NCBI GenBank assembly: GCA_021824285.1
Contig: JAKAKZ010000001.1
Coordinates: 4,096-68,095, forward strand
DNA from: a bacterium
Lineage (GTDB): Bacteria > Patescibacteriota > Patescibacteriia > SG8-24
Direction: 5' to 3'
DNA length: 64,000 nt
Part shown: positions 2,487 to 62,120 of the stretch, piece after piece
Position numbering within the stretch: position 1 is the first letter of the stretch
How the letters are laid out: the number at the start of each line of letters is the position of its first letter
The notes under the pieces: generated by a model
What the model saw: the letters and a program-made list of their open reading frames with translations, nothing else
Databases searched by the model: none
Told to the model about the DNA's origin: nothing
Position numbers and translations under genes: made by a program

Positions 2487-5447
2487 TTAATGGTTCTCAA
2501 AGCCGTTCTTAATGCCCGCACGGATCAATCCTTCGGTCTCGTGAATGTCCTGCACCTCAAGAAACGCCCACTTGCCGAACCCGCCATGGTTATTGACGGA
2601 TGGAACCCAAAGCTCACGAGCGGTCTTGGTCTTCAACGACTTCTTGTCATCCTTCTTTCCGGTCACCTCAATAAGCAGATTCAATGGCTCTTTCCCGCCC
2701 ACGTCGAGTCGCACGATGAAGTCCGGGATGTAGGCCCGCTCGATGCCCTTGTGCTCATACGGAATGGTGAACCCGAGGTTCTGGTTCTTCACGTAGGAAA
2801 TGACCTCCGGCATCATCTCAAGCTTCTTGGCGACCCCCTGCTCCCATTCTATGGTGTCCGCGACCACGTAATTCACATGGCTTTTGACGGTATCACTGAC
2901 TGGTTTCACCGTGAGGAAATCCACATGACGGGTCGATCCGACCTTATCGAACTGCGCCAGCACGGGCAGCACCTTCCGCTTGCCCTCCTGCGTAATGTTC
3001 TCCTGTACAATCGCTTGTTGGATCTTCGTGAGTGCACCGGCGTAGTATTCCCCAATCGTGAGGTAACCGATGACCATGCGGTCCTTTAGTTTGACCTGGG
3101 TTTTGACGTATTCCTCGACTATTTTCCTCAACTGAGGGAAAAGCCAATACTTGGAATCGCCCTCGGCGTCCGTGTAATACCTTCGAAGCAGCCCTTCTGT
3201 CAAACGCGTGACGACTTCGCCCTCGCGGCGCTCCTTGATTTTCTCAAGGCTCTCTACGACCTCCTCGCCGATGGCCCCTTCGCTGCGGACCTCGGTAGGC
3301 TCGTTCTCAATGACCGTCCGAGACTCTTCGGTGAACGTCGCTCCGAGCTTCTTCTCGTCAATCTCGTAACGGTATCCCTCGACGCGCGGGAAGGAAATCT
3401 CGTACTGCTCCCCCCGGTCGTCAAGGGAATGCACTCGATAGATGACCTTCGGTGGCTTCGGCTTGACGTCCCCGGTCGGGCGCAAGAAGCTGAACGGCAC
3501 CCCGTAGACTTCGGCGTATTCGGGCGAGAGCAGGCCGTTCTCCTCGACGTCATAGTCGACGCGCCGCAGGGCACGGCCGACCACCTGCTCGCAGAGCAGT
3601 TGCGTGGTGAAGGCCCGGATGCCCAGCACATGCGTGACGGTGTTCACGTCCCAACCCTCGGTGAGCATGGAGACGCTGACCACACACTTGATGTTCTCAC
3701 CGAGTTTGCCGGGCTTGCCGACGGTGTTCATGACCTCACGGAGGATTTCCTCGTTGCTCGGCTCGTCGCGACCTGCGTAACGGCGCATGTATTCCTTCTT
3801 AAAATCGTCGACCTCGGACGCGAAGATCCGGATGAACTCGTCATCGATCTTTTCGCCGCTCTCGAGCTGGGCGCTGTCGATGATGAGCGTGTTGGCCTTC
3901 TTGAGCATCTCGTGGCCGTCCTCATTGCGGAAAATGTCGAGGTTGCCCTTTTCGAGCCGGATCGCGCCGGTCGGCGTCTCGCGTTCATATCCGGCAATCC
4001 ACTTGTAGACCATCTCGGAAACAGTGGTGTTGTTGCAGACCACGATCATGACCGGCGGCATGACGGCGGGATTTTTCGTTTTCTCTTCGGCGTATCGGGC
4101 GTAATACTTTTCGTAGTTGCCGTAGAGCGAAAGGAGCGCCTCGTGGAGCTTGGTCGGGAGACTGATCTGCTCCTTGTCGAGGTTGTAACCGCCTGTTTTC
4201 TTGCCCTTTTTCGGGAGCTCGTCGCGCACGTGCAGCCAAAGATTCCTGAACTCCGGTTCATCCGTGATCGCGTCGGATTCGACCGGCAGACGCGGGATTT
4301 TGACGATCCCGCATTCGAGCGCGTCGAGGAGCGAAAAGTCGGAAACGACCCACGGGAACAGCTCGCCTTCCTGATAGCCGGAGCCGCTCAAGAAGTACGG
4401 CGTCGCCGACAGGTCGATGACGGCGTTGACGTCCATCTTTTCGGCAAGCGCCTTGACGCCGCTGATCCAGACCTTGGCATTCTTGTTGTTCTCGTCGGCC
4501 TCCTTCCTCTCCTCCACGGCCAGCTTCTCCTCAGTCGGCTTCTGCTGATAGCAGTGGTGCGCTTCATCATTGATTACTAGCACGCGCTTCTTGTTGAGCA
4601 GGCTCTTGAAGGCCCGATTCACCATCGCGCTCGGAGACTCCTTGGTCGCCTCTTCCTTCATCAATCCGGCGGCCTTGAGCGTCGCGCCAACCTGAAACCG
4701 CTGGAGCTGGAGACGTTCAAGCTTGTGAAAGTTGATGATCAGGACGTTCGCCTTCTGGAGCAGCTCGAAATCGTGATGCGACACGATGTCCCGCTTGCGG
4801 TAATAGTTTTCGGGACTGTTGGGCTGAAGGACGCTCAGGCGGTCGCGGATGGTGATGCCGGGAGCGATGATGGCGAAAGCGTCCGTGAAACGCGTATCCT
4901 GCGGATACTTGATCTTGTTGATGGTGTTGTAGGCGATGATCATCGCCATCACTACCGTCTTGCCGGAGCCGGTCGCCATCTTGAAGGCGAGGCGGTAAAG
5001 GCCTGGGTTGGCGTCGCCGTTGACCCGCCGCAAATCGTTCACCGCCCAAGCGTCGCCGTTCTTCTCGGCGACCTCGTTGATCCACATCAAGGTCTCAAGA
5101 GCCTCGACTTGGCAGAAGAAAAGCTTGTTCTCACGCGTATCGTCCTGCCAATAGGCAAGGAGGTCGCGGGAGGCTTTGGTCAGTCCGGGGTACCCCTTCT
5201 GCCGCCACGTGGCGATGCGGACGCGGATCTTGTTGACGAAGTCGTTCTCCTTCTGGAGCTCGGCACCGTATGCTCCTTCCGCCAAGTTCTGCTCGGCCTG
5301 TTTCTTGGCGGTCTTGGCCTTCGGAACTGGAATATAGAAGGCGCTCGGCCGCCGGCCCTCAACTGTCTGATCGGTAAGACCGCGCTCGTTAGAGCTGAAA
5401 TACCTATCCGGCACCTTATAAGGTGAGTTTAGGACTGGGCTTTCCAT
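2487..5447 (-). CDS. res: Type III restriction enzyme Res subunit (SF2 DEAH helicase with C-terminal PD-(D/E)xK-like nuclease)
   Basis: 986 aa; Walker A ATGSGKTVV, DEAH box VLVINDEAHH, SAT motif; C-terminal IPDFIV...LLIEVTGKKD resembles PD-ExK endonuclease motif; tightly coupled to mod. Confidence 0.8.
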   Translation of the reverse strand: MESPVLNSPYKVPDRYFSSNERGLTDQTVEGRRPSAFYIPVPKAKTAKKQAEQNLAEGAYGAELQKENDFVNKIRVRIATWRQKGYPGLTKASRDLLAYWQDDTRENKLFFCQVEALETLMWINEVAEKNGDAWAVNDLRRVNGDANPGLYRLAFKMATGSGKTVVMAMIIAYNTINKIKYPQDTRFTDAFAIIAPGITIRDRLSVLQPNSPENYYRKRDIVSHHDFELLQKANVLIINFHKLERLQLQRFQVGATLKAAGLMKEEATKESPSAMVNRAFKSLLNKKRVLVINDEAHHCYQQKPTEEKLAVEERKEADENNKNAKVWISGVKALAEKMDVNAVIDLSATPYFLSGSGYQEGELFPWVVSDFSLLDALECGIVKIPRLPVESDAITDEPEFRNLWLHVRDELPKKGKKTGGYNLDKEQISLPTKLHEALLSLYGNYEKYYARYAEEKTKNPAVMPPVMIVVCNNTTVSEMVYKWIAGYERETPTGAIRLEKGNLDIFRNEDGHEMLKKANTLIIDSAQLESGEKIDDEFIRIFASEVDDFKKEYMRRYAGRDEPSNEEILREVMNTVGKPGKLGENIKCVVSVSMLTEGWDVNTVTHVLGIRAFTTQLLCEQVVGRALRRVDYDVEENGLLSPEYAEVYGVPFSFLRPTGDVKPKPPKVIYRVHSLDDRGEQYEISFPRVEGYRYEIDEKKLGATFTEESRTVIENEPTEVRSEGAIGEEVVESLEKIKERREGEVVTRLTEGLLRRYYTDAEGDSKYWLFPQLRKIVEEYVKTQVKLKDRMVIGYLTIGEYYAGALTKIQQAIVQENITQEGKRKVLPVLAQFDKVGSTRHVDFLTVKPVSDTVKSHVNYVVADTIEWEQGVAKKLEMMPEVISYVKNQNLGFTIPYEHKGIERAYIPDFIVRLDVGGKEPLNLLIEVTGKKDDKKSLKTKTARELWVPSVNNHGGFGKWAFLEVQDIHETEGLIRAGIKNGFENH

Positions 5448-5524: not shown

Positions 5525-6199
5525 ATGACAAGTTCCCCCGAGGCGAAAACTGCGGCTGTCCTCCAGCTCATAAACGACCGAATTGTCGTTACTGACAGCG
5601 AAAAAATCGCCGTGTTTGTCGGTGATTTTGTCGATGCCGGAGACAAGATCACGACTGGGGATGCAGCAGCCATCCTGAACCGCCTCCAAAAAAACGGTGC
5701 AATCCGCATACTGGAAATCGGCACTCGGTCCAATTCGGACGGCGGATACACCCTTGAGAATATGCTGCATAAGGGGTTGTTTACTTACCAAGGACCGAGC
5801 TACAACCTCGAGCGTGTCGACCGTAACCGCCTAAATGCCGATAACCTGATTACGTTCCGGGTAGAGCCGAACTTTTTGGAGATTTGCACCACTAGTGACA
5901 GTGCACGCAAGATAATTCTTGCCGGGCAAGGCGTTCGCGAGATGGAAGACCATCTCAAATCGAACCCGATGACGTGGTCCTGCCCAATCGACCGGTCCAA
6001 CGTGGCTCTTCTACTAAAACCGGAGGAATCCATCGCGACCTGGATGGACAAATTCGCTCGTGGCGAATATGGCCACTGCAAAGACCGTCGGCATCCGAAC
6101 CGTTTCTGGATTGAAGACGGCAAAATCCGCTTCGGCACCGTATCAATCCCGGTGACCGAAGCCCTGCCTGTGAAGAAAAAAATTGACGACCACGCATGA
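5525..6199 (+). CDS. hypothetical protein (no recognisable domain), orphan gene between R-M and phage packaging module
   Basis: 224 aa intact ORF preceded by AT-rich promoter-like region (TTACAATAATATAGTT); no motif recognised. Confidence 0.45.
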   Translation: MTSSPEAKTAAVLQLINDRIVVTDSEKIAVFVGDFVDAGDKITTGDAAAILNRLQKNGAIRILEIGTRSNSDGGYTLENMLHKGLFTYQGPSYNLERVDRNRLNADNLITFRVEPNFLEICTTSDSARKIILAGQGVREMEDHLKSNPMTWSCPIDRSNVALLLKPEESIATWMDKFARGEYGHCKDRRHPNRFWIEDGKIRFGTVSIPVTEALPVKKKIDDHA

Positions 6200-6443
6200 G
6201 ACCGTTATAATGTCTTTGAACATTGAAAGCTAACCTTCGATTCTGGCCGGACTTACCTGTATAGGTGAGCGGCCGCGAGTCGGGTTATCGCGCGTCATCG
6301 AACCAGCGGACCTGTGCGCCGCTGAACCGAGAGCCGAGATAACAGAGTATCGGGCGTTCTACGCCGCTGGTATTTTGTTATTTCGGCTTTTGTCGTTATA
6401 GCCAAGCCAGCCACCGAACATCCGGACTGGCTTTTTTGTCTTA

Positions 6444-7796
6444 ATGATTATGTCGATATTTATGAAACCACTCGAATGGCACAACGAAAAACGCAAGGCG
6501 CAGGACATTCTGCCTTGGCCTGGAAATCCTCGTAAACTCACGGACGAACAGGCGGAGCAGCTAAAGAAATCATTGGAAAAATTCAACTTGGTCGAGATTC
6601 CAGCCATCGACACCGATAACCGGCTGATTGCTGGTCACCAGAGGGTCAAAATCCTGCTGGCGTTGGGACGGGGCGGCGAGGAGATCGACGTGCGTGTGCC
6701 GAACCGGAAACTCACCAAGGAAGAGTTCGAGGAATACAACGTGCGCAGCAACCTGACAACCGGGGAATGGGACTTCGACGCGCTTGGCGAACTCGATGAG
6801 ACTTTCCTGTCCGATGTCGGATTTAGCTCCGAAGAGTTGGACCGGATTTTCGGCGAGGACGAAACGCCTGATGTCTTCGACCTTCAGAAGGAACTGAAAA
6901 AACTGGACATCAAGGAGGTCGAGATCAAGAAGGGCGATGTGTGGGCGCTCGGCGAGAGCCAAATGATGTGCGGCGACTCGACTGTCGAGGCGGATTTCCA
7001 GAAGCTCATGGGCGGCGAAAAGGCCGACATGTGTTTAACCGACCCGCCGTACATCCTGGACTACCTGCACGGGAAGACCCGGCATGGCAAGGCGACGGAG
7101 GGGTTCGGATACAAGCGCGACCGCCGGTACCTCGAGACGGAGTCCCTGCCGGACAACTTCACCGAGCTCTGGATGAGCAACGTCGCGGCGGCGGCGAAGC
7201 CGGACTTCTCCATCATCGTGTACGAGAACTGGAAGAACATCCGGACAATCTGGGGCGAGATGGAGAAGCGCTGGAAGGTGAAGAACATGATCGTCTGGCA
7301 CCTAGAGAACCGGCATCAGGGCTTCTCATCCAAGTACCGCTTCTTCAACAAGCACGACATCGCGATGGTGGGAGCGTCTGGCGACGTGCCGTACAACCAC
7401 GACGCGGAGGAGGCTCCGCTCCAGGAGGAGTACGAGACGGCCCTCTACGCCATAAGCGGCAAGCCGAACTGGGAGAAGTACGAGAAGGGCAAGAAAAACT
7501 GCCCGACCGACTTCATCGAGTTCCGCGCCTCCGACGCGAAGCATTCCGGCCAAGGCGTCGTCTTCGGGACGAAGCCGACCGAGATCCTGGTCCCCTACGT
7601 CAAGGTCCTCACGAGGCGCGGCGACCTGATCGTCGAGCCGTTCGGCGGCAGCGGAAGCACCCTGATGGCCGCGACCAAGATGAAGCGGCGCTGCTTCCTG
7701 ATGGAGAAGAGCCCGGTGTACGCCGAGGTCATCCGGAAACGCTGGGAGAAGCTCACCGGCCTCAAGGCCGAACGCGTCGCCTATGCCGGCCGATAA
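6444..7796 (+). CDS. ParB-like nuclease domain / DNA methyltransferase fusion (phage-type DNA MTase)
   Basis: N-terminal ParB/Srx motif (IPAIDTDNRLIAGHQRVKIL); C-terminal MTase motifs TDPPYILDY and VEPFGGSGST; likely true start at MKPLEWH (about 6462); overlaps terminase small subunit gene. Confidence 0.8.
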   Translation: MIMSIFMKPLEWHNEKRKAQDILPWPGNPRKLTDEQAEQLKKSLEKFNLVEIPAIDTDNRLIAGHQRVKILLALGRGGEEIDVRVPNRKLTKEEFEEYNVRSNLTTGEWDFDALGELDETFLSDVGFSSEELDRIFGEDETPDVFDLQKELKKLDIKEVEIKKGDVWALGESQMMCGDSTVEADFQKLMGGEKADMCLTDPPYILDYLHGKTRHGKATEGFGYKRDRRYLETESLPDNFTELWMSNVAAAAKPDFSIIVYENWKNIRTIWGEMEKRWKVKNMIVWHLENRHQGFSSKYRFFNKHDIAMVGASGDVPYNHDAEEAPLQEEYETALYAISGKPNWEKYEKGKKNCPTDFIEFRASDAKHSGQGVVFGTKPTEILVPYVKVLTRRGDLIVEPFGGSGSTLMAATKMKRRCFLMEKSPVYAEVIRKRWEKLTGLKAERVAYAGR

Positions 7797-14318: not shown

Positions 14319-14471
14319 GGTGAATTGATGAGGCGGTCCGGGGCCTGCGGCGTCGGCGGCACCGGCAGGACGGCGCTTATCACCGAAGCGATAGGGCACT
14401 GTGAAGGCGGGCATGAAACCCATTCTGGCAAGGCTTCAGGTGAGACTGATAGTCTGGACTTTATTTTCAAT

Positions 14472-16544: not shown

Positions 16545-18371
16545 TCACTGGAGCAGGCCGTCCAACTGGCGTTGAATTTCCTGGATGCCCGCCTGGTCGC
16601 CGGCCTTTTCGGCCTGGGCCATTTCCTGGCGAAGCTCTTTCTTCCGGCGGTCGATGCGGAGTTTCTGTAGTTCTCCGATCAATCGGTCGAGCGCGTCCTT
16701 CCGCCTCTCGGGCGCCAATTCGCCGAACTCCATTTCAGCGCGGAGTTCTAGGGTGGCGACCAGCTGTGCGGACTCCGCAGTGGGAGCCGGCACCGGCACG
16801 GACGCGGCTCCTGATGAGCCGCCGTTACGTTTCGCAGTATACGCCAGGACGTATTCCGTGTAAAGCTGGCGATAATTCTCCTCAAACTCCTCCGGCAGGA
16901 CCCGGGAAATGGCCTCTTCCGCGAATTCCGGCCACTTATACAGCATGGCCAGCGTGAATTCGGAGACCACGGCATCGCGGGTCTGGGCTTTGGGGAGCTG
17001 ACGGATGCTAGGACTCGCCTCTACGGCCGCGGCTGGCTCTGCGGCGGTCGCGCGGTGGGGCTGGATACGGGATTTCAGCTGCTGCAGGCGCTCGAAAAGC
17101 AGAGAGTCCGGCGTATCGAACAGCCGTGCCGTCTCCCGGATCCAATGGGCCTGTTCGACCGGCTCTTTCATCTTGGCGATTTCCGCGAGAATCTGGTGCG
17201 AGGCCTCCCGTTTGGCTTCGGGATCGTGGAAATCCGTACGCTCCTTGGCCAGCTCCAGGTACCACTCCATGTAGGGTACGGCAGCGGCCACGGCTTTCGG
17301 CCAAAGTTCCGGATGCTGGCGAACGCAATCGTCTGGATCCTTGCCGGCCTCCGGCGGCAGACGCAGCACCCGGACCGTCAGCTCCTGGAGCACGGCCGCA
17401 TCGATGCCGCGCCGCGCGGCCGCCTCCCCCGCCTTGTCGTTATCGAAGGAAAGCACGACGCGGCTAGTGAAGCGCTTAAGGAGCTTGAGTTGGTCATCCG
17501 TGAGAGCCGTGCCGGAACTGGCGACCACGTTCCTGAAACCGGCCTGCTGGACGGACACTACATCCATGTTGCCCTCCACCACGACCGCCAATCCCTGTTT
17601 ACGGATCTCCTGCTTGGCGCGGTCGAGTCCGAAAAGCAGATGGCTCTTGTTATAGACCAACGTCTGGTTGGTGTTGACGTATTTGGCTTCGTTCTCCGGA
17701 TCCTTGCCGTCTGGACCGGGAATGATCCGACCCGTGAAGCCGACGATATTGCCGTGGACGTCGCGGATGGGGAACATCAACCGGTTGCGGAAGCGGTCAA
17801 AGTGGCCGGTGCCGCGTTCGGACCGAGAGACTAGTCCAGCCTTGAAGAGTTCCTCCTCGCTGAATCCCTTGCGCTTAAGGGCGTTAAGCAGGGCGTCCCA
17901 GGTGTCGGGCGCATAGCCGATAAGCCAGTCCTCGATAGTCTCCGGCTTGAGTGCGCGACGGGTGGCGGCGTAAGCGCGGACTTTCTCGGCCACCGGATGC
18001 TTGAGCAGGACCTCATGCCAAAAGCGCGCGGCCATGCGGTTGGCCTCGAGCAGGCGCTGACGTTCCTCGTTGGCCTGCCGATCCTCTGGCTTGAGCTCTA
18101 CGCCGGCCCGCTTGGCTAGAATGCGCAACGCCTCCGGAAAATCCACGCCTTCGATGCGCTGGATGAAGCCGAAGATGTCGCCGTCCTCGCCGCAGCCAAA
18201 GCAGTGGTAGCGCTGGCGATCGACGTTCACGTAGAACGACGGCGTCTTTTCCCCATGGAACGGGCAGCAGGCACGCCAAGCCGACCCGGCTTTCTTGAGC
18301 GGGACGTGATCGGATACGAGCTGGACGATATCCAACTTGGATTTAATCTCTTCGATGACGCCGGAGGACAT
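16545..18371 (-). CDS. dnaG: DNA primase DnaG
   Basis: 608 aa; zinc-ribbon CCPFHGEKTPSFYV...YHCFGCGEDGD, TOPRIM region. Confidence 0.9.
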   Translation of the reverse strand: MSSGVIEEIKSKLDIVQLVSDHVPLKKAGSAWRACCPFHGEKTPSFYVNVDRQRYHCFGCGEDGDIFGFIQRIEGVDFPEALRILAKRAGVELKPEDRQANEERQRLLEANRMAARFWHEVLLKHPVAEKVRAYAATRRALKPETIEDWLIGYAPDTWDALLNALKRKGFSEEELFKAGLVSRSERGTGHFDRFRNRLMFPIRDVHGNIVGFTGRIIPGPDGKDPENEAKYVNTNQTLVYNKSHLLFGLDRAKQEIRKQGLAVVVEGNMDVVSVQQAGFRNVVASSGTALTDDQLKLLKRFTSRVVLSFDNDKAGEAAARRGIDAAVLQELTVRVLRLPPEAGKDPDDCVRQHPELWPKAVAAAVPYMEWYLELAKERTDFHDPEAKREASHQILAEIAKMKEPVEQAHWIRETARLFDTPDSLLFERLQQLKSRIQPHRATAAEPAAAVEASPSIRQLPKAQTRDAVVSEFTLAMLYKWPEFAEEAISRVLPEEFEENYRQLYTEYVLAYTAKRNGGSSGAASVPVPAPTAESAQLVATLELRAEMEFGELAPERRKDALDRLIGELQKLRIDRRKKELRQEMAQAEKAGDQAGIQEIQRQLDGLLQ

Positions 18372-18467
18372 CGTAGTTGGTTGAGAGTCGAGAGTTTAGA
18401 GTTCAAAGTTGAAAGTTTTGGTTCAGTCCAAACTTTCAACTCTCAACTCCGAACTTTCAAACGCCAA

Positions 18468-19280
18468 TCATCGGACCAATTCGATCAATCGCTCAAACGG
18501 CAGCTGCGATGGTTTGGCGTCCGGCGCCAGTTCGCCGCCGCAGATGAGCAACTTCTTGGTGTGATGGAAATACCAGGTCGCCGTCGGATCCTCCTTCGCC
18601 AAGGCCTCATGGACGGCCGTGAGATCGATATCGGTGCCGGCCCGGCCGCGGATATTGCGGTATGAGCCGTCAGGATTCATGTACAGCACCAGATCGAAGC
18701 CGTGCGCGTAGCCGTATGAATCGATCTCGCGGGCGGTCGAGACCAGCGCCACGGCACGTCCGTAGCGCGACTGGAACTCCTGCCGTTTAGCCCAAGCGGT
18801 CTCGAGGCGGACCATATTGCGTTCGGAGACCAGCAAGGCATCAAGCAGGCGATACCCCAGTTCGGCAACCGCGGAGGAATCGCGGCCGGTCCGTTCGTAC
18901 TCTCCCTGAAAGACCATCGGAACGGTGAACTCGCGGTAAGCTACCGCATTCAGTTTGCCCGTGTCCTCCTCAAGCACCCAGGCGACGATTTTGGCGATGG
19001 CCGCGGCTTCCTCCGGGTCAGCGATACGGCCTTTTATGGCCTTGTGCACCAGCGTCGTGGCGCAATCCCCCACATCACCCTTGTGCTCATCGAAGCGCCC
19101 GCGGGCCATGCCGACGTAAATGATGCCCAAATCCGCATCCGGCTCGCTTACCCGCCTGTCCGCCGGCAGAAACTCCAGGGCCGCATTCTCGGCTCCCGGC
19201 TGATAGCGCTTCAGCAGCCAGGCGGCACAGATGTCGTCCAAGTGCGGCCGAATATGGGTGATGATGCGTTTAACGGTCAT
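18468..19280 (-). CDS. MYG1/UPF0160-family metal-dependent hydrolase (putative)
   Basis: 270 aa; N-terminal ITHIRPHLDDICAAWLL resembles MYG1 signature GTHxGxFHCDEALAxxLL. Confidence 0.4.
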   Translation of the reverse strand: MTVKRIITHIRPHLDDICAAWLLKRYQPGAENAALEFLPADRRVSEPDADLGIIYVGMARGRFDEHKGDVGDCATTLVHKAIKGRIADPEEAAAIAKIVAWVLEEDTGKLNAVAYREFTVPMVFQGEYERTGRDSSAVAELGYRLLDALLVSERNMVRLETAWAKRQEFQSRYGRAVALVSTAREIDSYGYAHGFDLVLYMNPDGSYRNIRGRAGTDIDLTAVHEALAKEDPTATWYFHHTKKLLICGGELAPDAKPSQLPFERLIELVR

Positions 19281-22030: not shown

Positions 22031-22229
22031 GACGCCATGTTAGCCTAAATAAGCCAAATTTCAAATGATTAGATTCTTTGGCGATCGGTCGGCGGCTGAC
22101 GGTTGCCAGAATCCGGCCGCTGATATAATATGCCTCCACGTATTGAGAGCGTTAAGTTTGAAGTGTGAAGAGTGTAGGGCGCGGCCCTTGTAACTTCGGA
22201 CTTCCAGCTCCACACTCCATCCTACCCAC

Positions 22230-22298
22230 GGAGAGGTCGCATAGAGGTCTAGTGCACTCGCTTGGAAAGCGAGCAGACCGCAAGGTCTCGAGGGTTCG
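22230..22298 (+). pseudogene. truncated 5' copy (nt 1-69) of tRNA-Ser(GGA)
   Basis: 69/69 identical to the first 69 nt of the intact tRNA-Ser at 22605; diverges inside T-loop into two GC hairpins then the GIY-YIG ORF; no matching 3' acceptor strand. Confidence 0.7.
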
Positions 22299-22349: not shown

Positions 22350-22619
22350 ATGAAATACGTCTATCTGCTTAAATTGCGGAACGGCGACATCTATAAAGGA
22401 TCAACCGGTGATTTGCGCCGCCGGATGGAAGAGCACCGACTTGGTAAGGTCGAATCGACGAAACACTTCCGGCCGCTATCGCTAATAGGCTACGAGGCAT
22501 ATCAGAATCACGAAGACGCTGAACGCCGCGAGCGATTCCTGAAGACAACCGGGGGGGAAAGGCTGCTGAAACAGCAATACAAAAACGCCATAACCCAACC
22601 ATACGGAGAGGTCGCATAG
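22350..22619 (+). CDS. GIY-YIG family endonuclease (homing-endonuclease-like)
   Basis: 89 aa; YVYLLKLRNGDIYKGSTGDLRRRMEEH matches GIY-x10-YIG...R...E core; 3' end overlaps first 15 nt of intact tRNA-Ser. Confidence 0.75.
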   Translation: MKYVYLLKLRNGDIYKGSTGDLRRRMEEHRLGKVESTKHFRPLSLIGYEAYQNHEDAERRERFLKTTGGERLLKQQYKNAITQPYGEVA

Positions 22620-22692
22620 AGGTCTAGTGCACTCGCTTGGAAAGCGAGCAGACCGCAAGGTCTCGAGGGTTCGAATCCCTCCCTCTCCGCCA
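22605..22692 (+). tRNA. tRNA-Ser (anticodon GGA), long variable arm, encoded CCA
   Basis: 88 nt: acceptor GGAGAGG/CCUCUCC, D-arm, anticodon stem CUCGC/GCGAG with loop UUGGAAA, variable arm CAGACCGCAAGGUCUC, T-arm GAGGG-UUCGAAU-CCCUC, GCCA. Confidence 0.85.
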
Positions 22693-22850: not shown

Positions 22851-22870
22851 GAATCCCTCCCTCTCCGCCA
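22851..22870 (+). repeat. direct repeat of 3'-terminal 20 nt of tRNA-Ser (att-like remnant)
   Basis: GAATCCCTCCCTCTCCGCCA identical to tRNA-Ser positions 69-88, about 160 bp downstream of the intact gene; followed by bidirectional terminator hairpins. Confidence 0.6.
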
Positions 22871-22940
22871 CGAACCCGTCAGCCCAGGCTGGCGGGTTTT
22901 TGAGATAATGAAAAACCCGTCCGAGCGGACGGGTTAATGA

Positions 22941-23558
22941 TTATTCGGGAGACTTCATCGGCGGAACCGCCGGCGGCAGCTCGTAGAACTGGACGTCCTC
23001 GCGGCCGGGCTCGATGCCGTAGCCGCCACGGCCGTTGCCTTGGCCGTCGCCGCCCTGGCCGTCACCGTCGCCGTCCCCGTCGCCGCCCTCACCGTCGCCG
23101 CCTCCGCCCTTGCGGCCGAATTCGACGACGACCGGACGGCCGTTCTTGAGCATCAGTCGGGCGCGGTCCGCGCCCTTGTGCATGTTCCGGGAGTACGGCA
23201 GGACGTAGGCCCGCGGCTCGCCGTCACGCGACGTGTAGCCCAGAGGATTCGCGCGGGGATCGCCGCCGGAATCCAGAGAGCGTAGCCACAGGTAGATGGC
23301 GCCGGGATCGCTGCCGTCGGGCCGCGGTTCACGGACCATCACCCAGAAGACCATGGCCTTCCGGGGCGGTGACGAGTCCGTCGGCCAGCCCTTGTAGCTG
23401 CCGAGGGAGGACCAGATGACGATGCAGAAGGCCGGCACCACGACGATCACCAGAAGCTTCTGCCACCAGTTCCACTTGGTGCCGATGAGAATCAGGCACA
23501 GCACCACGGCGAGCAGGAAGAAGGCCAGCGGAATGGCCAAAGTGCGCGGATCCATCAC
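22941..23558 (-). CDS. membrane protein with Gly/Asp-rich low-complexity tail (hypothetical), third gene of MotA/ExbB-like operon
   Basis: 205 aa; two N-terminal TM helices; GGGGDGEGGDGDGDGDGQGG tail; 4-nt overlap with upstream gene. Confidence 0.5.
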   Translation of the reverse strand: MMDPRTLAIPLAFFLLAVVLCLILIGTKWNWWQKLLVIVVVPAFCIVIWSSLGSYKGWPTDSSPPRKAMVFWVMVREPRPDGSDPGAIYLWLRSLDSGGDPRANPLGYTSRDGEPRAYVLPYSRNMHKGADRARLMLKNGRPVVVEFGRKGGGGDGEGGDGDGDGDGQGGDGQGNGRGGYGIEPGREDVQFYELPPAVPPMKSPE

Positions 23559-27946: not shown

Positions 27947-28012
27947 TGAGGTGGGTGGCTTTGCGCTTAAAGCTTCGAGCTTGGAGCTACGTTAGTGCAG
28001 ACGTAATTAGAG

Positions 28013-54004: not shown

Positions 54005-54412
54005 TCATTCCGCCGCGTGGCGGTCAAGGGCTTGATTCACCAGGCGGTCGGCATCCTTGTTGTTCTCGCGCCGCACGTGGGTGAAAGTGACTTTGCGGAA
54101 CCCGAGCCGAAGATTATGGACACGCATGTACTGCTGGGCCAAACCGGGATCCTTCACGCGATATTGTCCGGCCAATTGCCGCACTACGAGTTCAGAATCC
54201 AGGTACACGTCGAGCTCATCGGCCCCCAGCTCTTTGGCATGCTCTAAGGCATCAATGACCGCCGCATATTCGGCGTGGTTATTGGTGGCGTGACCCAAAT
54301 AACGGCCATGTTCCTTAACCGGTCGGCCGTCGGTGTCCGTAATGTACACGCCGAGCGCGGCCGGACCTGGATTGCCGCGCGCGCCGCCGTCCGTGTGCGC
54401 TATCAGTTTCAT
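54005..54412 (-). CDS. rnhA: ribonuclease HI
   Basis: 135 aa; DGGARGNPGPA, NNHAEY, ...D catalytic DEDD pattern. Confidence 0.85.
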   Translation of the reverse strand: MKLIAHTDGGARGNPGPAALGVYITDTDGRPVKEHGRYLGHATNNHAEYAAVIDALEHAKELGADELDVYLDSELVVRQLAGQYRVKDPGLAQQYMRVHNLRLGFRKVTFTHVRRENNKDADRLVNQALDRHAAE

Positions 54413-56151
54413 ATTACGGGCTGCGCCAAGCGCAGATCTATGGCCTTAAGCTGAATCTCCTGACGGCCGTTCCAGACGTTGATGCCTAGTTCGACGACCA
54501 AATCGATATGGCTGCCAGGCACGATCGCCCTCGCCTTCTCTGCCAGATTGAAAGCGATGACCTTCGATTCGACCGCCACATCACCCCGGACGGCCAGACG
54601 GACATGACGTCCGTTCTGACCCACCGGCGTAGCCGAGGACATGACGAGGTCGCGCAAGAGGAACCGCGGCCGGGGATTGCCTTCGCCGTGCGGCTCGAAC
54701 TTCTGGAGCAGATGCACGAGATCCCAGGTCACCTGGGAAAGCCGGATTTCCGCGTCCGACTGCAGCACCGGACGCAGATCGCGTCCGGCCAGCTCGCGCC
54801 GCGCGTACTCCTCCACGATAGCGCAGAACTCGCGGAAATGCCCATCCCCATCCACGGTCATGCCGCAGGCCTGCGGATGGCCGCCGAAGCGCGTGAGGTG
54901 ACCCTTGGCCGCCTCGAGCGCGGCCACCAGGTTGAAGCCGGGTACGCCGCGGCCCGACCCGACGTAGCGCTCCCCTTCCCGGCCGAAAACCATGGCCGGC
55001 ACGCCGGTCTCGGAGGCGATCTTGCCGGCCACGAGGCCGACAAGGCCCGCCGACCAGCCGTCGCCCCAGACGATGCGAAGCGGCGTGTCCTGCGGCGCTG
55101 CGGCGAGCCGCGCTTGGGCCGCGCGCATGATCTCCTCGGTGCTGCGCTGACGGGCCAAATTTAAATCATTGAGTTTTTCCGCAAGTATCTTCGCGTCTTC
55201 GAGCGTCGGCGCCATGAGCGCGTCGAGCGCGTGCTGCGCGTGGTCCATGCGTGAGGCCGCGTTGATGCGCGGGCCGATGCCGAAACCGACGGAAACGGTG
55301 TCGATCGCGCCGGCGGCCAGGCCGGCGGTCTCCAGGATGCGCTGCAGGCCCGGGCGCCGGGTCTTGTTGAGCACGACCAGCCCGTATTTCTCGAGCGTCC
55401 GGTTCTCGCCCACGAGCGGCATCAGATCCGTGACCGTGGCGATCGCCACGAGATCCAGCAGCCATTTGTCGAAGCCGGCCGAGAACGGCTTGCCGCGCTC
55501 GGCCGCGTAGCGCATGAACCCGCAGGCCAGCTTGAAGGATACGCCGACCGCCGCCAGCTTACCGAACGGATAAGTCTCCCCCGGCACGAGCGGATGGATG
55601 AGGATGCATTCCGGCACCTGCGGCGGCACCTGATGGTGGTCAACCACGATCGTGTCGATGCCGCGCTCGGCCGCGAGCGCGATCTCGGGCGCGCAGCTGA
55701 TGCCGCAATCCACGGTGATCATGAGGTCGGTCTTACGGCCGGACAGGACCTCGACCGCCTCGCGGCTGACGCCGTAGCCCTCTTTCTCGCGGTGCGGGAT
55801 GTAACTGCCGATGCGCGACCGGTCGGCGCCCAGAAGGCGCGCGGCCTCGTGCAGCGTCGTGAGCAGTACCGCCGATCCGGTGACGCCGTCGGCGTCATAA
55901 TCGCCGTAAACGACGATATTCTCCCCATCGGTGAGCGCGCGCCAGATGCGGGCGCAGGCGGCCTCCATCTCGCGGAAAAGATAGGGATCATGAAGATCCC
56001 GGACGTAGTCGGGCTGCAGAAATGCCTCGACCTGATCCTTGGCCGTGATTCCGCGGCTCCACAGCAACTGAACCGCAACAGGGTGCAGCTCGGAAAAACG
56101 CTCGCGCATGTCCTGCGCTGGCGGATCGGCAAGAGTCCAACGGCGGTCCAT
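54409..56151 (-). CDS. recJ: single-stranded-DNA-specific exonuclease RecJ
   Basis: 580 aa; DHH motifs (VVYGDYDADGVTGSAV, DHH), DHHA1, C-terminal OB. Confidence 0.85.
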   Translation of the reverse strand: MDRRWTLADPPAQDMRERFSELHPVAVQLLWSRGITAKDQVEAFLQPDYVRDLHDPYLFREMEAACARIWRALTDGENIVVYGDYDADGVTGSAVLLTTLHEAARLLGADRSRIGSYIPHREKEGYGVSREAVEVLSGRKTDLMITVDCGISCAPEIALAAERGIDTIVVDHHQVPPQVPECILIHPLVPGETYPFGKLAAVGVSFKLACGFMRYAAERGKPFSAGFDKWLLDLVAIATVTDLMPLVGENRTLEKYGLVVLNKTRRPGLQRILETAGLAAGAIDTVSVGFGIGPRINAASRMDHAQHALDALMAPTLEDAKILAEKLNDLNLARQRSTEEIMRAAQARLAAAPQDTPLRIVWGDGWSAGLVGLVAGKIASETGVPAMVFGREGERYVGSGRGVPGFNLVAALEAAKGHLTRFGGHPQACGMTVDGDGHFREFCAIVEEYARRELAGRDLRPVLQSDAEIRLSQVTWDLVHLLQKFEPHGEGNPRPRFLLRDLVMSSATPVGQNGRHVRLAVRGDVAVESKVIAFNLAEKARAIVPGSHIDLVVELGINVWNGRQEIQLKAIDLRLAQPVI

Positions 56152-56474
56152 CGATTTACGGGTCCGGAAAGATTAAAGCTTAGGGCTTAAAGCTTCTGCT
56201 CTAAGCTCCCAGCTTCAAGCTTCACTTATTCAAGTACGGCGCGACCATGCCGAAAACCATGGCCAGGGCGGAAAAACCGGTAAGCGTAATCCAAACGACC
56301 TTGCGGACCTGCCGGCGACGGATGCGGATATTACCGATTTTAGGCATAAATGCGGTTGAGTGTGATGGCTTAAGGGTCGAAAGGTCGAAGGGACACGCGG
56401 CGGTGGCCTTTAAACCATTAAACCCCTACACCCTTAAACCGAATACGATTGATATGTTATCACGGCCCAGAAAA

Positions 56475-58289
56475 TCAATCACGTTTCAGCACGGACAGGA
56501 AGGCCTCCGGCGGAATGTCCACCTTACCGCCCTTCATCATGCGCTTCTTGCCTTCCTTCTGCTTGTTGAGCAGTTTCTGCTTGCGGGTCCAGTCACCACC
56601 CGAAAGATAGCCGGTGACGTCCTTGCGGTACGGGGCGATGCGTTCCGAGGCCACGACCTTGCCGCCGAGAGCAGCCTGGATCTTCACCTCGAACTGCTGG
56701 CGCGGCAGGGTTTCCTTGAGCGATTCGCAGATCTTGCGGCCGATACGCTGGGCCGCATCGCGGTAAACGATGGTGGCGAAGGCCTCCACCGGTTCTTCCG
56801 CCACAAGGATGTCGAGCCGCGCCACGTCCGCCTCGCGGTAATCGAGGAACTCGTAGTTCAGCGAGGCATAGCCGGAGGAGACGCTCTTCAGCTTGTCGTA
56901 GAAATCCACCAGGATGGACGACAGCGGCATCTCGTAATGCAGGTAGACGCGGCTCGCACCCTCATCGGCGGTCAGGTATTCGGTGTTGCGGTAGAGCCCG
57001 CGCTTGTCCTGGACGAGCGCCATGATGTTGCCGAGGAAATCGCGCGGCGCGATAATGTCGGCGCGCACCCACGGCTCCTCGATGAACTCGATGCGGCTCG
57101 GGTCCGGCAGGTCCATGGGGCTCTTCACGGTAACTGTGGTCTGGTCGCTCTGGTGGACGCGGTAGGCCACGGATGGGACCGTGACCACGACCTCCAGACC
57201 GTATTCGCGGCGCAGGCGCTCCTGGACGATTTCGAGATGCAGGAGGCCGAGCATGCCACAGCGGAAGCCGAAGCCGAGCGCGGTGGAGTGCTCCGGCTCA
57301 AAGGAGAGCGCGGAATCGCTTAATTTCAATTTCAGCATCGCATCGCGCAGGCGCTCAAAGGCGTCGCCTTCCTTGGGGAAGATGCCGGCAAAGACCATGG
57401 GCATGATGTCCTTGTAGCCCTCGACCGGCTCCACTCCCCGTTCGCGCGCATCGGCCACGGTCAGCGTGTCGCCGACGCGGCACGCCGCGATCTCCTTGAG
57501 GCCGGAACAGACGTAGCCGATTTCGCCGGCGCGGAGCGAATCGGTGGGCTTGAATTTCGGCGTAAATATGCCGAGGTCGATGACCTCGCCGCGTGCCCTG
57601 GTGGCGAACAGCGATATCTTGTCATTTTTCTTCAACTCTCCGTCGACCACGCGCACGAAGGCGACCACGCCCTTGTAGGAATCGTACATGGAGTCGAAAA
57701 CCAGGCCGCGGAAAGGCCTTGCCGGGTCGCCCTGCGGCGGCGGCACCTTGGCGGCCACGGCCTCCAGGATGTCGGCGACGCCGGAACCGGTCTTGCCGGA
57801 GGCGAAGATAACTTCCTCCGGTGCGCAGCCGATGAGGTGCACGAGCTCCTCGCGAGCCTTTTCCGGTTCGGCGTTCGGCAGGTCGATCTTGTTGACCACG
57901 GGGATGATGGCCAGGTCCTGCTCAAGAGCCAGGTAAAGATTGCCGATGGTCTGCGCCTGTACGCCTTGGGTGGCGTCGACGAGCAGAATCGCGCCCTCGA
58001 CGGCCGCGAGCGAGCGCGAGACCTCGTAGGTAAAGTCCACGTGGCCCGGCGTGTCGATCAGGTTGAACTCGAAAGTCCGCCCGGCGCGGGTGGTGTAGCT
58101 CATGCGCACGGGCTGCAGCTTGATGGTGATGCCGCGCTCGCGCTCCAGGTCCATCTGGTCGAGCATCTGGTCCTTCATCTCGCGCTTGGAGACGGTTTTG
58201 GTGATCTCCAAAATGCGGTCCGCCAGCGTGGACTTGCCGTGGTCGATGTGCGCGATGATGCAGAAATTGCGGATGTCGTTCATTTCCAT
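56475..58289 (-). CDS. lepA: elongation factor 4 (LepA)
   Basis: about 604 aa from MEMNDIRNFCIIAHIDHGKSTLADR (supplied ORF has a 114-aa spurious N-extension); G-domain motifs, LepA C-terminal domain. Confidence 0.9.
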   Translation of the reverse strand: MEMNDIRNFCIIAHIDHGKSTLADRILEITKTVSKREMKDQMLDQMDLERERGITIKLQPVRMSYTTRAGRTFEFNLIDTPGHVDFTYEVSRSLAAVEGAILLVDATQGVQAQTIGNLYLALEQDLAIIPVVNKIDLPNAEPEKAREELVHLIGCAPEEVIFASGKTGSGVADILEAVAAKVPPPQGDPARPFRGLVFDSMYDSYKGVVAFVRVVDGELKKNDKISLFATRARGEVIDLGIFTPKFKPTDSLRAGEIGYVCSGLKEIAACRVGDTLTVADARERGVEPVEGYKDIMPMVFAGIFPKEGDAFERLRDAMLKLKLSDSALSFEPEHSTALGFGFRCGMLGLLHLEIVQERLRREYGLEVVVTVPSVAYRVHQSDQTTVTVKSPMDLPDPSRIEFIEEPWVRADIIAPRDFLGNIMALVQDKRGLYRNTEYLTADEGASRVYLHYEMPLSSILVDFYDKLKSVSSGYASLNYEFLDYREADVARLDILVAEEPVEAFATIVYRDAAQRIGRKICESLKETLPRQQFEVKIQAALGGKVVASERIAPYRKDVTGYLSGGDWTRKQKLLNKQKEGKKRMMKGGKVDIPPEAFLSVLKRD

Positions 58290-58369
58290 ATCGGGAGTGG
58301 GGAGTGGGAAGTTTGGAGTGTGAAGGTATTGCTGGGGCGCTTCACGCTTCAAACTTCCCACTCCATACT

Positions 58370-60010
58370 TTATTCGGCCACGATGGCCTCGCCTTCCTGG
58401 CCCAGCTCGGAACGCGGTCCGGGCGCGCCGCGACGGCGGTAGAGGGCCACGATGCGGCGGGCGTCTTCGGAACCGAGCAGGAGGGCCAAAGCGATGTAGG
58501 CCGCGATGCCCAGCGCGCCGGCCACCGCGCCCTGCGTGAAGATACCGACGAAGGTCTGCATGTTCACGACCGCGCCAAGAACCGTCTTGCCGAGCTGGAT
58601 GACCAGCGCCATGGCGACGCCGGCGACGCACATGACCGCGAGCGGACGCATGATGGCCGCCTCGCCGAGATTGCCGGTCCGCCGCCGCAGAAACGCCCAG
58701 AGCACGACCAGATTGAAGACGCTGCCGACGGAAAAGGCCAGGGCCAGACCCGGCGTGCCCATGCCGCGCGCGACGAGGACCGCGGCCAGCAGACGTTCCA
58801 GCACGACCGCGACAATGCCGGCGTAAAGCGGCGTCTTCACGTCATGATAGGCGAAGAAGGCACGGGTCACGAGCGGCAGGAGCGCCTGGGCGAAGAGGCT
58901 CAAGGTGAAATAGGCCAGAGCATCGGCCGTAGCGATGGTATCGCTCCAGTCGAAACGGCCGGTACCCAGAATGACGCGGACGATCTGGGCCCGGAGCAGC
59001 AGGAAGGCGACGGTCGCCGGAATGATCAGGAACATCACGGAGCGCACGGTCTTGGCGTAAGCGTCCACGAAGCCGGTCCGGTCGTATTTGGCCGCCAGCT
59101 CGGAAATCAGCGGGAAAGCGGCCACGGCGAAGGAGACGCCGATGATGCCGATGGGGAAACTCTGCAGGTTATTGGCCAGGTTGAAGACCGCGATGCCGCC
59201 CGCACCGACGGTCGAGGCGACGCCCGTGAGGATGGCAAGATTCAGCTGCGAGACGGCCAGACCGGCCGTGCGCGGCACCATCAGCCGCCAGATGTCGCGC
59301 AGGCCGGCGTCGCGCCAGTCCCAAATCGGCCGGTAACGGAAGCCGAGCGCCAGGCAGGCCAGGAGCTGGACGGCCATGTGCATGGCCGCGCCGAACACCA
59401 CGCCCCAGGCGGCCCCGGCCACGCCGAGACGCGGCACCAAGAAGACGATGCCGAAAATGATGCCGAAATTGTAGAGGATCGGCGCGAGCGCGTAAGTCAG
59501 GAACCGGCGCCGCACCTGCAGGACGCCGCCCAGGACGCCCGAGACGCCCAAGAGCACCGGCGACAGGAACATGACGCGCGTGAGACTGACGGTCAGCTCC
59601 CGGACATGGCCGCCGAAACCGGGAGCGATGTAGCGCGTGAGCCAGGGCGCGGCGGCGGCGCCGGCGACGGCCGCGACGACGAGCAGCGCGCCGAGCACCG
59701 TCAGGAGCAGCGAAGTCAGCCGGCTGGCTGATTCATTGAGCTTTTCTTCATGCGACTCGCGGGTCAGGACGCGCGTCAGCACCGGAATGAAGCCGGCCGT
59801 GATGGCGCCAAGGACGAAGAGGTTGTAGACCAGGTCCGGGATGCGGAAGGCGGCGTAATAGGCATCGAGCTCCGCGCCAGCGCCGAACGTGCCGGAGAGC
59901 ATCCGGTCGCGCAGGACGCCGACCGCACGGCTCGCGAGCGAAGCGACGCCCAAAAGAACCGCCGCGGCGGTGACGGTCGAGGACTTGGATTTGAGCAGGC
60001 GGCCGAGCAT
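58370..60010 (-). CDS. murJ: lipid II flippase MurJ (MviN)
   Basis: 546 aa, about 14 TM; MurJ N-terminal signature LRDRMLSGTFGAGAELDAYYAAFRIPDL. Confidence 0.85.
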   Translation of the reverse strand: MLGRLLKSKSSTVTAAAVLLGVASLASRAVGVLRDRMLSGTFGAGAELDAYYAAFRIPDLVYNLFVLGAITAGFIPVLTRVLTRESHEEKLNESASRLTSLLLTVLGALLVVAAVAGAAAAPWLTRYIAPGFGGHVRELTVSLTRVMFLSPVLLGVSGVLGGVLQVRRRFLTYALAPILYNFGIIFGIVFLVPRLGVAGAAWGVVFGAAMHMAVQLLACLALGFRYRPIWDWRDAGLRDIWRLMVPRTAGLAVSQLNLAILTGVASTVGAGGIAVFNLANNLQSFPIGIIGVSFAVAAFPLISELAAKYDRTGFVDAYAKTVRSVMFLIIPATVAFLLLRAQIVRVILGTGRFDWSDTIATADALAYFTLSLFAQALLPLVTRAFFAYHDVKTPLYAGIVAVVLERLLAAVLVARGMGTPGLALAFSVGSVFNLVVLWAFLRRRTGNLGEAAIMRPLAVMCVAGVAMALVIQLGKTVLGAVVNMQTFVGIFTQGAVAGALGIAAYIALALLLGSEDARRIVALYRRRGAPGPRSELGQEGEAIVAE

Positions 60011-61974: not shown

Positions 61975-62120
61975 ATCGGATGTTTGAAAGTTCGAAAGTT
62001 GGGAGTCGGGAGTTAAAATCGAGCTGGGGACAAGACAACGTGATTATATATGAAAATAAAAATCCCGTCCGCCGTGTTCGGGACAGGACACGCATCAGCG
62101 CCGAACTCTGAACCGCCCAA

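Follow-up and report, generated by a model that had tools for sequence, protein, structure and literature searches.

Over 35 years of records, first from cyanobacteria and then also from Xanthomonas, Beggiatoaceae and Bacteroidetes, no function has been demonstrated for the tandem repeats of seven-nucleotide units found in intergenic DNA. Here we describe arrays of this type in a stretch of 64,000 nucleotides of contig JAKAKZ010000001.1 (the window), where several spacers such as that upstream of dnaG are filled by degenerate tandem units of 7 or 8 nt, mostly as two arrays facing one another. The elements are the same kind of sequence as the STRRs of cyanobacteria and the GGGNATC repeats known from Xanthomonas and Nostoc, found in a new phylum and with new units; they are not new in kind. 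They are probably arrays born of slippage and transcribed as intercistronic stem-loops, a composite reading in which most weight lies on classification and origin and less on a role of the RNA.

Rehm et al. 2015 described repeats of GGGAATC in Xanthomonas and of GGGGA(C/T)T in Nostoc PCC 7120 that are strongly intergenic, prefer approximately four units and lie mostly between co-directional open reading frames (ORFs) (PMC4692102). Convergent inverted pairs of GGGAATC arrays number 70–75 per Xanthomonas genome. The repeats are transcribed and vary between close relatives, related heptamers form G-quadruplexes (G4) in vitro, preferentially as four units, and the study found no function (PMC4692102). 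Three STRR unit families have been described in Calothrix (PMC4692102), and for cyanobacterial 7-bp STRR hairpins between hupS and hupL either transcript stabilisation or translational coupling was suggested (PMC2670836). MacGregor 2015 reported TAACTGA heptamers from marine Beggiatoaceae, some Cyanobacteria and Bacteroidetes, which adjoin start codons on the upstream side where ribosome-binding sites are scarce; 169 of the 170 Beggiatoaceae sets are direct and one is inverted (PMC4679880). As cited in that paper, Mrazek 2007 found heptanucleotides to be the commonest long simple-sequence repeats (SSRs) in many bacteria, which may reflect polymerase slippage. An earlier reading of the window from its letters, referred to below as the preliminary description, knew of no description of the pattern, but comparable repeats are published, namely the convergent heptamers of Xanthomonas and Nostoc (PMC4692102), the STRR hairpins (PMC2670836) and TAACTGA (PMC4679880). 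In the literature library that was searched, no paper linked heptamer repeats to Patescibacteria or the candidate phyla radiation (CPR).

Periodic arrays at seven intergenic loci

The loci were read directly and mapped against ORFs, tRNAs and Pfam hits (Table 1). Degenerate tandem arrays were found at seven intergenic loci, namely those of dnaG, lepA, recJ, a small ORF, tRNA-Ser, pduL and tgt, and all seven fall inside the 6.2% of the window that is intergenic. The arrays were found where the preliminary description had placed them, and its gene names dnaG, lepA, pduL (PTAC family), tgt and recJ were correct.

Table 1. Positions and layout of the seven repeat loci in the window (first position of the window = 1).
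Feature	Position	Strand	Layout
dnaG element	18372-18467	−	Whole 96-nt spacer between the gene of a 270-aa protein (18468-19280) and dnaG (16545-18371); inverted period-7 arrays
lepA element	58290-58369	−	Whole 80-nt spacer between murJ (58370-60010) and lepA (56475-58289); inverted GGGAGTG-type heptamers
recJ element	56152-56227	−	76-nt spacer between a 41-aa small ORF (~56228-56347) and recJ (54409-56151); period-7 AAGCTTN units
small-ORF element	56348-56474	−	127-nt spacer between lepA and the small ORF; period-8 inverted arrays, hairpin at ~56365-56440
tRNA-Ser element	22140-22229	+	Weaker period-7 inverted element between a promoter-like site and a truncated tRNA-Ser
pduL array	61975-62014	−	Single C-rich, G-poor array AACTCCCG/ACTCCCA/ACTTTCGA/ACTTTCAA, ending at the pduL ATG
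tgt array	27947-27990	−	Single period-7 array AGCTCCA/AGCTCGA/AGCTTTA/AGCGCAA/AGCCACC/CACCTCA, ending at the tgt ATG

Arrays were called with Tandem Repeats Finder (TRF) and compared with 40 dinucleotide-preserving shuffles of the window. TRF reported period-7 arrays at 18380-18417 (5.4 copies), 18431-18460 (4.3 copies), 56168-56224 and 58293-58320 and period-8 arrays at 56410-56440 and 61982-62000, with copy numbers of 4–5.9 and typically 4–5 units. Five arrays of period 7–8 with at least 3.5 copies were observed against a shuffle mean of 0.1, and four with at least 4 copies against none in the shuffles. A dispersed, non-random family of intergenic arrays with 7-nt periodicity, as the preliminary description had proposed, is thereby borne out. 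Autocorrelation was calculated for 12 arms, each against shuffles of that same arm, and was significant in all (p ≤ 0.022); the strongest lag was 7 in nine arms and 8 in three. Heptamers had been assumed throughout, which holds for the nine arms but not for the element at 56348-56474, where the period is 8.

The unit types found in the window are GRAGTNN (GAGAGTT, GGGAGTG), AAGCTTN and TTTAAGGG. A consensus that varies by locus had been noted, and the units do differ, but GRAGTNN (complement NNACTYC) recurs at dnaG, lepA, pduL and tRNA-Ser and is also found in the related loci L081 and L101. The core words GRAGT/ACTYC were not enriched in intergenic DNA outside the arrays.

Paired arrays are predicted to form hairpins of one orientation

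Two inverted arrays had been ascribed to each of the seven loci. Such pairs were found at five (dnaG, lepA, recJ, small ORF and tRNA-Ser), pduL and tgt having single arrays. The five pairs are predicted to fold into long imperfect hairpins of 20–34 pairs at −28 to −38 kcal/mol, with z scores of −2.2 to −7.6, and the paired elements of relatives gave z scores of −3.9 to −9.5. Read in the sense of the genes, the dnaG element runs GAAAGTT/GGAGTTG/AGAGTTG..., a loop, and AACTTTC/AACTTTG/AACTCTA/AACTCTC/GACTCTC. Its hairpin begins directly after the stop codon and ends 9 nt ahead of the ATG, the arms match at 25 of 31 positions, and the RNA fold has −34.8 kcal/mol (z −6.1; lag-7 p ≤ 0.0035). The lepA hairpin begins at the stop codon and ends 6 nt ahead of the ATG, with 26 of 30 arm positions matching and a fold of −37.4 kcal/mol (z −7.0 to −7.6 in two runs). 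At recJ the period-7 phase is continuous through the loop (−28.1 kcal/mol, z −4.2; periodicity p ≤ 0.0015). The small-ORF element sets TTTAAGGG-type units opposite CCCTTCGA/CCCTTAAG with a lag-8 periodicity of p ≤ 0.008, and its fold has −33.2 kcal/mol (z −3.3) for the 100-nt core and −38.0 (z −2.7) for the whole spacer. Over nine intercistronic spacers, the predicted stem starts 0–6 nt after the stop codon and ends 2–21 nt before the next start.

The remaining loci are arranged differently. The tRNA-Ser element has arm periodicities of p = 0.007 and 0.022 and a fold of −30.5 kcal/mol (z −2.2). Immediately upstream of it lies a promoter-like site (22103-22131, TTGCCA-17-TAATAT), so that the element would be transcribed as a 5' leader; this is the only consistent promoter among the elements, and the promoter scan gave no promoter-like site for dnaG, lepA or recJ within theirs. 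The adjoining tRNA-Ser sequence, which the preliminary description had taken for the gene, is truncated; it spans 22231-22298 and agrees at every position with the first 68 nt of the intact tRNA-Ser gene (22605-22692). At pduL the array (periodicity p = 0.0055) has no adjacent inverted partner, only a short G-rich remnant further upstream. In gene sense this remnant (62101-62114) is followed by a U-tract terminator (62053-62089) and a TATAAT box (62043-48), so that terminator and promoter are nested between remnant and array, and the minimum free energy fold of the 146-nt spacer pairs the two. The tgt array (lag-7 p = 0.0005) has no inverted partner and no significant fold (z −1.2).

In all 14 periodic hairpins the G-rich arm is 5' and the C-rich arm 3' (two-sided binomial 1.2e-4). 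The set comprises 5 hairpins of the window, 4 of L081, 1 each of L084 and L085 and 3 of L101, some of them classed by eye. Generic hairpins in control loci were split 54:47, i.e. without such a bias. The single arrays at pduL and tgt obey the same rule by providing a C-rich, G-poor leader before the ATG, and the 30 nt upstream of dnaG, lepA and pduL contain 1–2 G only. In effect the stop codon of the upstream gene is followed by G-rich sequence, and the gene downstream has a leader that is poor in G and rich in C. The bias was also considered as a strand signal, a polarity towards the downstream gene. This was rejected, since a G-rich-first palindrome reads alike on both strands and the bias therefore identifies neither.

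Rapid turnover among relatives

Twenty further loci of relatives were gathered via DnaG, the lineage-specific 270-aa protein and LepA (loci of relatives and controls carry L numbers). Negative controls were 1.3 Mb of unrelated loci from the DnaG contig scan, from relatives at 31–46% identity. Similar arrays were found in L081, L084, L085, L086 and L101, and in L081 (64% DnaG identity) they occupy most of the larger spacers. Arrays of at least 4 copies had a density of 6.3 per 100 kb in the window and approximately 15 per 100 kb in the non-redundant loci L081-L093, compared to 1.3 per 100 kb in the controls and approximately 1.3 per 100 kb in L094-L098. Essentially no arrays were found in L094-L098, L102 and L103, which are equally close relatives of the same GC. 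Since array density is patchy among relatives of equal GC, the pattern is neither restricted to the window nor a by-product of base composition. The few arrays in control loci came mostly from Cytophagales and other Patescibacteria.

At the junction of the 270-aa gene and dnaG, hairpins are built of GAGAGTT units in the window, GGGATTN in L081 and TAAGTGC in L085; L086 has a direct-only array of GTAACTN units (TAGTAAC; GTAACTG/GTAACTA), and in nine other relatives the genes are 0–11 nt apart. The contig L082 (81% identical) aligns through dnaG, rpoD and the dnaG-rpoD spacer, but not through the element. The gap between murJ and lepA is 80 nt in the window versus 4, 3 and 1 nt in L101, L102 and L103, whose LepA proteins are 83%, 75% and 76% identical to that of the window. 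L101 has a 98-nt period-8 G-rich-first element at its lepA/small-ORF junction (6381-6478), built of other units (AGTGACGG versus a perfect CACTCCGC in 4.5 copies) and followed by a T-run. Its small ORF/recJ junction (6608-6683) holds a 76-nt period-7 G-rich-first hairpin equal in length to that of the window, the C-rich arm being partly alignable. Other units in L081 are AGTTTGT and GTTTTAC; two L081 arrays end directly at a TTGAC −35-like box, and the element at L081:13292-13420 encloses a canonical terminator. Overall, units and presence differ between lineages at 46–84% protein identity.

These comparisons of orthologous junctions establish that in the intercistronic cases the element is the whole spacer, that elements turn over much faster than their flanks, and that the arms stay complementary to each other as the unit changes. 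They show that architecture (period and arm complementarity) rather than sequence is conserved and that the elements extend beyond the window. The placement at operon 5' ends given in the preliminary description was not upheld, four of the window loci being intercistronic spacers between co-directional, probably co-transcribed genes with orthologous spacers of 0–11 nt.

Two further groups of repeats were seen in these loci. L081 contains a second, unrelated family with a unit of ~38 nt and a GC-rich palindrome GTCATTCCCGCGAAAGCGGGAATCCGGGTAGCCCACCCC, three times in tandem, and related single copies (…CCCGCGCAGGCGGGAATCCAGAACGAT…) in other spacers (positions 5925-6040, 4540-4570 and ~14390-14420); it resembles a repetitive extragenic palindromic (REP) or CRISPR-like repeat. 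Among the Cytophagales controls, period-7 arrays were present at L014:1217-1343, L017:1208-1351 and L024:2068-2390 (Spirosoma, Aquirufa, Algoriphagus), that of L014 being an inverted pair with TAGACGT facing AACGTCT. These arrays are consistent with the heptamer repeats published for Bacteroidetes.

Gene context and other features of the window

The window has a GC of 61%, and its genes lie almost all on the minus strand; dnaG is followed by rpoD, and lepA is preceded by murJ. The best named relatives of DnaG and LepA are among 'Patescibacteria group', Uhrbacteria and Parcubacteria bacteria. The host is Patescibacteria-like, with a compact genome in which non-coding DNA is scarce. Shine-Dalgarno-like motifs (GGAG/GAGG/AGGA) were found within 20 nt upstream of 5 of the 55 predicted genes of the window, and on this account translation appears to be largely independent of Shine-Dalgarno sites genome-wide. 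The lack of such sites as a trait special to the genes preceded by arrays was rejected, the whole window being poor in them. Several promoter-like −10 boxes lie 6–9 nt from an ATG, e.g. upstream of 40935, which suggests leaderless mRNAs or mRNAs with very short leaders.

The small ORF between lepA and recJ (~56228-56347, minus strand) encodes ~40 aa which, translated by eye, include a hydrophobic segment MPKIGNIRIRRRQVRKVVWITLTGFSALAMVFGMVAPYLNK. Relatives have such an ORF at the same position, called as a gene of 42 aa in L101, 41 aa in L102 and 44 aa in L103. Besides the truncated and intact copies of tRNA-Ser(GGA), which are separated by ~300 nt with a 90-aa ORF (22350-22619), a 3'-end fragment GGAATCCCTCCCTCTCCGCCA lies downstream at ~22853-22873. 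Together these copies look like scars of integration or excision at a tRNA gene. On the plus strand, the 244-nt spacer at 6200-6443, upstream of a 450-aa gene at 6444, begins with a TATAAT-like box, contains several stable hairpins and has a terminator-like end with a T-run; it had no Rfam match at E ≤ 0.5 and could be a cis-regulatory leader. The gene of a 205-aa protein at 22941-23558 contains an in-frame GCCGTC-type repeat with periods of 6, 15 and 27 (23016-23110, minus strand) that specifies a stretch of low complexity rich in Asp and Gly and has no relation to the heptamers between genes.

Proposed origin and action

The composite reading considered probable above can be set out as follows. 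Slipped-strand expansion would generate the arrays and keep turning them over, and they would appear in spacers as the few places where a compact genome tolerates extra DNA. The arrays persist almost only in one form, a G-rich array close behind the stop codon of the upstream gene and, opposite it, an array rich in C and poor in G close ahead of the next start codon; the two arrays are complementary in most cases, and in the intercistronic ones the whole spacer is then a single imperfect stem of 20–34 predicted pairs. Selection may act against other layouts, e.g. a G-rich or structured stretch directly ahead of a start codon, or an unpaired spacer. The element is probably part of a polycistronic mRNA, because the genes are co-directional and abut in relatives and no promoter-like site separates the element from dnaG, lepA or recJ. 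If the element acts at all, it would most likely do so as an intercistronic RNA stem-loop that holds stop and start codons close together, and the stem could alter decay, RNase processing or translation of the downstream gene. We found no support for a transposable element or for an operator set of one sequence-specific protein.

Several observations weigh against this account. Slippage accounts for direct arrays; for complementary inverted pairs and the strict G-rich-first order it is not enough on its own. In the pair L081 and L087 no indels were seen across four arrays, although at 99.9% identity the two have diverged too little to be informative. Transcription across the elements, and with it any role of the RNA, is something that we infer. 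Folding energies of sense and antisense strands were mixed (5 sense-favoured, 3 antisense-favoured, 1 equal), and as there is no consistent G-U asymmetry a cruciform or hairpin at the DNA level is equally compatible. The unit GGAGTG/CACTCC occurs at different loci of three genomes (window, L081 and L101), which could point to a sequence-specific partner. Arrays are also found in untranslated contexts, i.e. in leaders or upstream regions of tRNAs, so that a role specific to translation would not be general.

Alternative explanations

The ribbon-helix-helix proteins omega (pSM19035) and ParG (TP228) bind arrays of 7–8-bp sites, direct and inverted, next to promoters. Their arrays consist of one conserved unit, are limited to a few promoters within a module for plasmid partition or copy control, and have the cognate gene nearby. 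The elements share the unit length and both orientations with these operators; the single unit, the module promoters and the cognate gene (which was not searched for) were not seen here, and heptad operators of this type were rejected. More generally, a protein that recognises 7-nt repeats in DNA or RNA might bind the arrays, either as operators or centromere-like sites of an omega/ParG-type protein or as sites of S1-, Csp- or CsrA-like RNA binders such as were suggested for the TAACTGA repeats. Their regular 7–8-nt phasing in direct and inverted form fits such a protein, as do the GRAGTNN/CACTCC unit shared by four window loci, L081 and L101 and the L081 arrays that stop at a −35-like box. 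For start-proximal heptamers in Shine-Dalgarno-poor genomes, RNA-binding proteins have been proposed by MacGregor 2015 (PMC4679880), and only 5 of 55 genes have such sites here. Yet units differ widely across loci and orthologous junctions, intergenic DNA outside the arrays shows no excess of the core words, and the arrays have no constant position relative to promoters, lying downstream of the site at 22103-22131 in the window and upstream of a −35 box in L081. Close relatives lack arrays altogether and no candidate binding protein was identified. Protein-binding arrays, one of two readings offered in the preliminary description, are not supported for a single factor, and a repeat-reading protein of any kind appears unlikely. 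The other reading was of a family resembling MITEs (miniature transposable elements with inverted repeats). Both REPs and MITEs have a family consensus common to all copies, MITEs having terminal repeats and target duplications in addition; the REPs of E. coli are palindromes scattered over extragenic sites, are included in operon transcripts and can stabilise the mRNA upstream of them. The elements resemble REPs and BIMEs (interspersed mosaic elements of bacteria) in being dispersed, palindromic and extragenic. Spacers are present or absent among close relatives, e.g. between murJ and lepA, and AGTTTTAGGTTTTGCG is common to two L081 loci, as might be expected of a mobile family inserting into intergenic DNA. 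Against such a family, each copy has its own unit and an internal 7–8-nt periodicity, loops are unrelated and arms locus-specific, no terminal inverted repeats are shared, no target-site duplications were seen by eye, no palindromic consensus is common to the copies, and two elements enclose terminators and promoters. No copy was seen to have a transposase or RAYT-like gene beside it, though the search was not systematic and RAYT genes were not themselves searched for. The MITE and REP/BIME classes were rejected on these grounds, and a mobile origin is very improbable.

The placement of the stems in the nine intercistronic spacers also suits a translational device under selection, acting by termination-reinitiation coupling or by ribosome-dependent unmasking of starts that lack Shine-Dalgarno sites. 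Sites of this type are scarce in the window, orthologous gene pairs abut within 0–11 nt, implying ancestral coupling, and the arrays that form no hairpin (pduL, tgt) lie in longer spacers, the pduL array after a terminator and TATAAT box; coupling has been suggested for STRR hairpins as well (PMC2670836). The argument is one of geometry, and a stable stem of 25–30 bp placed 6 nt before a start could equally block initiation. Moreover, L086 has a direct-only array between the same two genes (270-aa gene and dnaG), and some hairpin elements stand ahead of tRNA genes or fragments, which are not translated. We consider such a device doubtful, and no less so in its fuller form, in which bacteria without Shine-Dalgarno use would have adopted a self-pairing spacer that joins stop and start codons at the base of the stem. 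Were it true, terminating ribosomes would re-initiate across an insert of 80–130 nt, or RNase III would cut the operon transcript; slippage would lengthen or shorten the stem and so tune the expression ratio of neighbouring genes, and the strict order of G-rich first and C-rich second would be a functional signature. Action of G-rich arrays as G-quadruplexes and of C-rich arrays as i-motifs, in DNA or RNA, which has been suggested for GGGNATC repeats, is a still more remote prospect. The array at L081:9914-9951 (GGGATTTAGGGATTGAGGGGTAGAGGG) has four tracts of at least three G, and in vitro G4 formation with a four-unit preference is known for related heptamers (PMC4692102), arrays here typically having 4–5 units. 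The lepA array has three G3 tracts and a GG, and those of dnaG (GAGAGTT/GAAAGTT) and recJ (AAGCTT) have none; no window array has the four G3 tracts of a canonical motif, which was rejected, and the G-rich arm of a paired element would be tied up in the predicted duplex. Attenuation or termination ahead of dnaG has a precedent in the rpsU-dnaG-rpoD operon of E. coli. Attenuators or terminators without a U-tract, lowering downstream expression of genes such as dnaG, would be consistent with long stable hairpins directly downstream of stop codons, with the T-run after the L101 lepA/small-ORF element and with the canonical terminator enclosed at L081:13292-13420. In the window, the terminator scan flagged none of the elements, none has a U-tract, and ordinary intrinsic terminators occur elsewhere; strong termination with no promoter-like site between the elements and dnaG, lepA and recJ would silence genes that are probably needed, and this explanation has very little probability. 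Of known RNA families in Rfam 15, only two tRNAs reached the gathering threshold and nothing overlapped any element, even at E ≤ 0.5.

The same period, convergent pairing and orientation with respect to stop and start codons are now seen in a tiny, compact Patescibacteria-like genome, where they replace junctions of 0–11 nt. This argues that the architecture arises from a general mechanism, perhaps with a general selective filter, rather than from lineage-specific biology. Orthologous junctions with and without an element, or with different units and preserved pairing, constitute natural experiments that could separate action as an RNA hairpin, action as a DNA structure and no action. On the practical side, such repeats can mislead gene callers, tools that predict promoters or terminators, and assemblers when these are applied to CPR genomes.

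Comparison with known heptamer repeats

The elements show the tandem excess, non-coding bias and convergent G-rich-first pairs of intergenic heptameric SSRs of the STRR and GGGNATC type. Window units match none of the described consensus sequences (GGGNATC, STRR1-3, TAACTGA), a mismatch that excludes only these named sub-families because the class is defined by architecture and not by one unit. The units of STRR1-3 are reportedly CCCCAGT, TTGGTCA and CAACAGT (Mazel et al. 1990). Like the cyanobacterial STRRs, the elements are 7-bp non-coding tandem repeats with several unit families per genome, some predicted to form hairpins between genes that are probably co-transcribed; unlike them, they have other units and occur in another phylum, in a high-GC and very compact genome. 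With the TAACTGA repeats they share arrays ending a few nt from start codons on the sense strand, before genes without Shine-Dalgarno sites or a common function, and the L086 array (GTAACTG/GTAACTA) is one base away from TAACTGA. That family has a single conserved unit in direct orientation, whereas inverted pairs and many units dominate here.

The likeness to the Xanthomonas and Nostoc repeats includes the 7-nt unit, approximately four copies, the intergenic position mostly between co-directional ORFs and the convergent pairs with their potential for a stem-loop or cruciform. The placement rule is likewise the same, the stop being followed by the G-rich strand and the start preceded by the C-rich strand (14 of 14 hairpins here), the associated genes are housekeeping genes, and the L081 dnaG element even uses GGGATTN, similar to the GGGNATC-type units. 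Length and sequence of the published repeats vary among close relatives; here units and presence differ at 46–84% protein identity. The elements differ in their Patescibacteria-like host, in the use of several unrelated units within one genome instead of one consensus, and in that most window arrays do not have the four G3 tracts needed for a quadruplex. They further differ in having period 8 beside period 7 and in that, in the intercistronic cases, the element constitutes the entire spacer between genes that abut in relatives.

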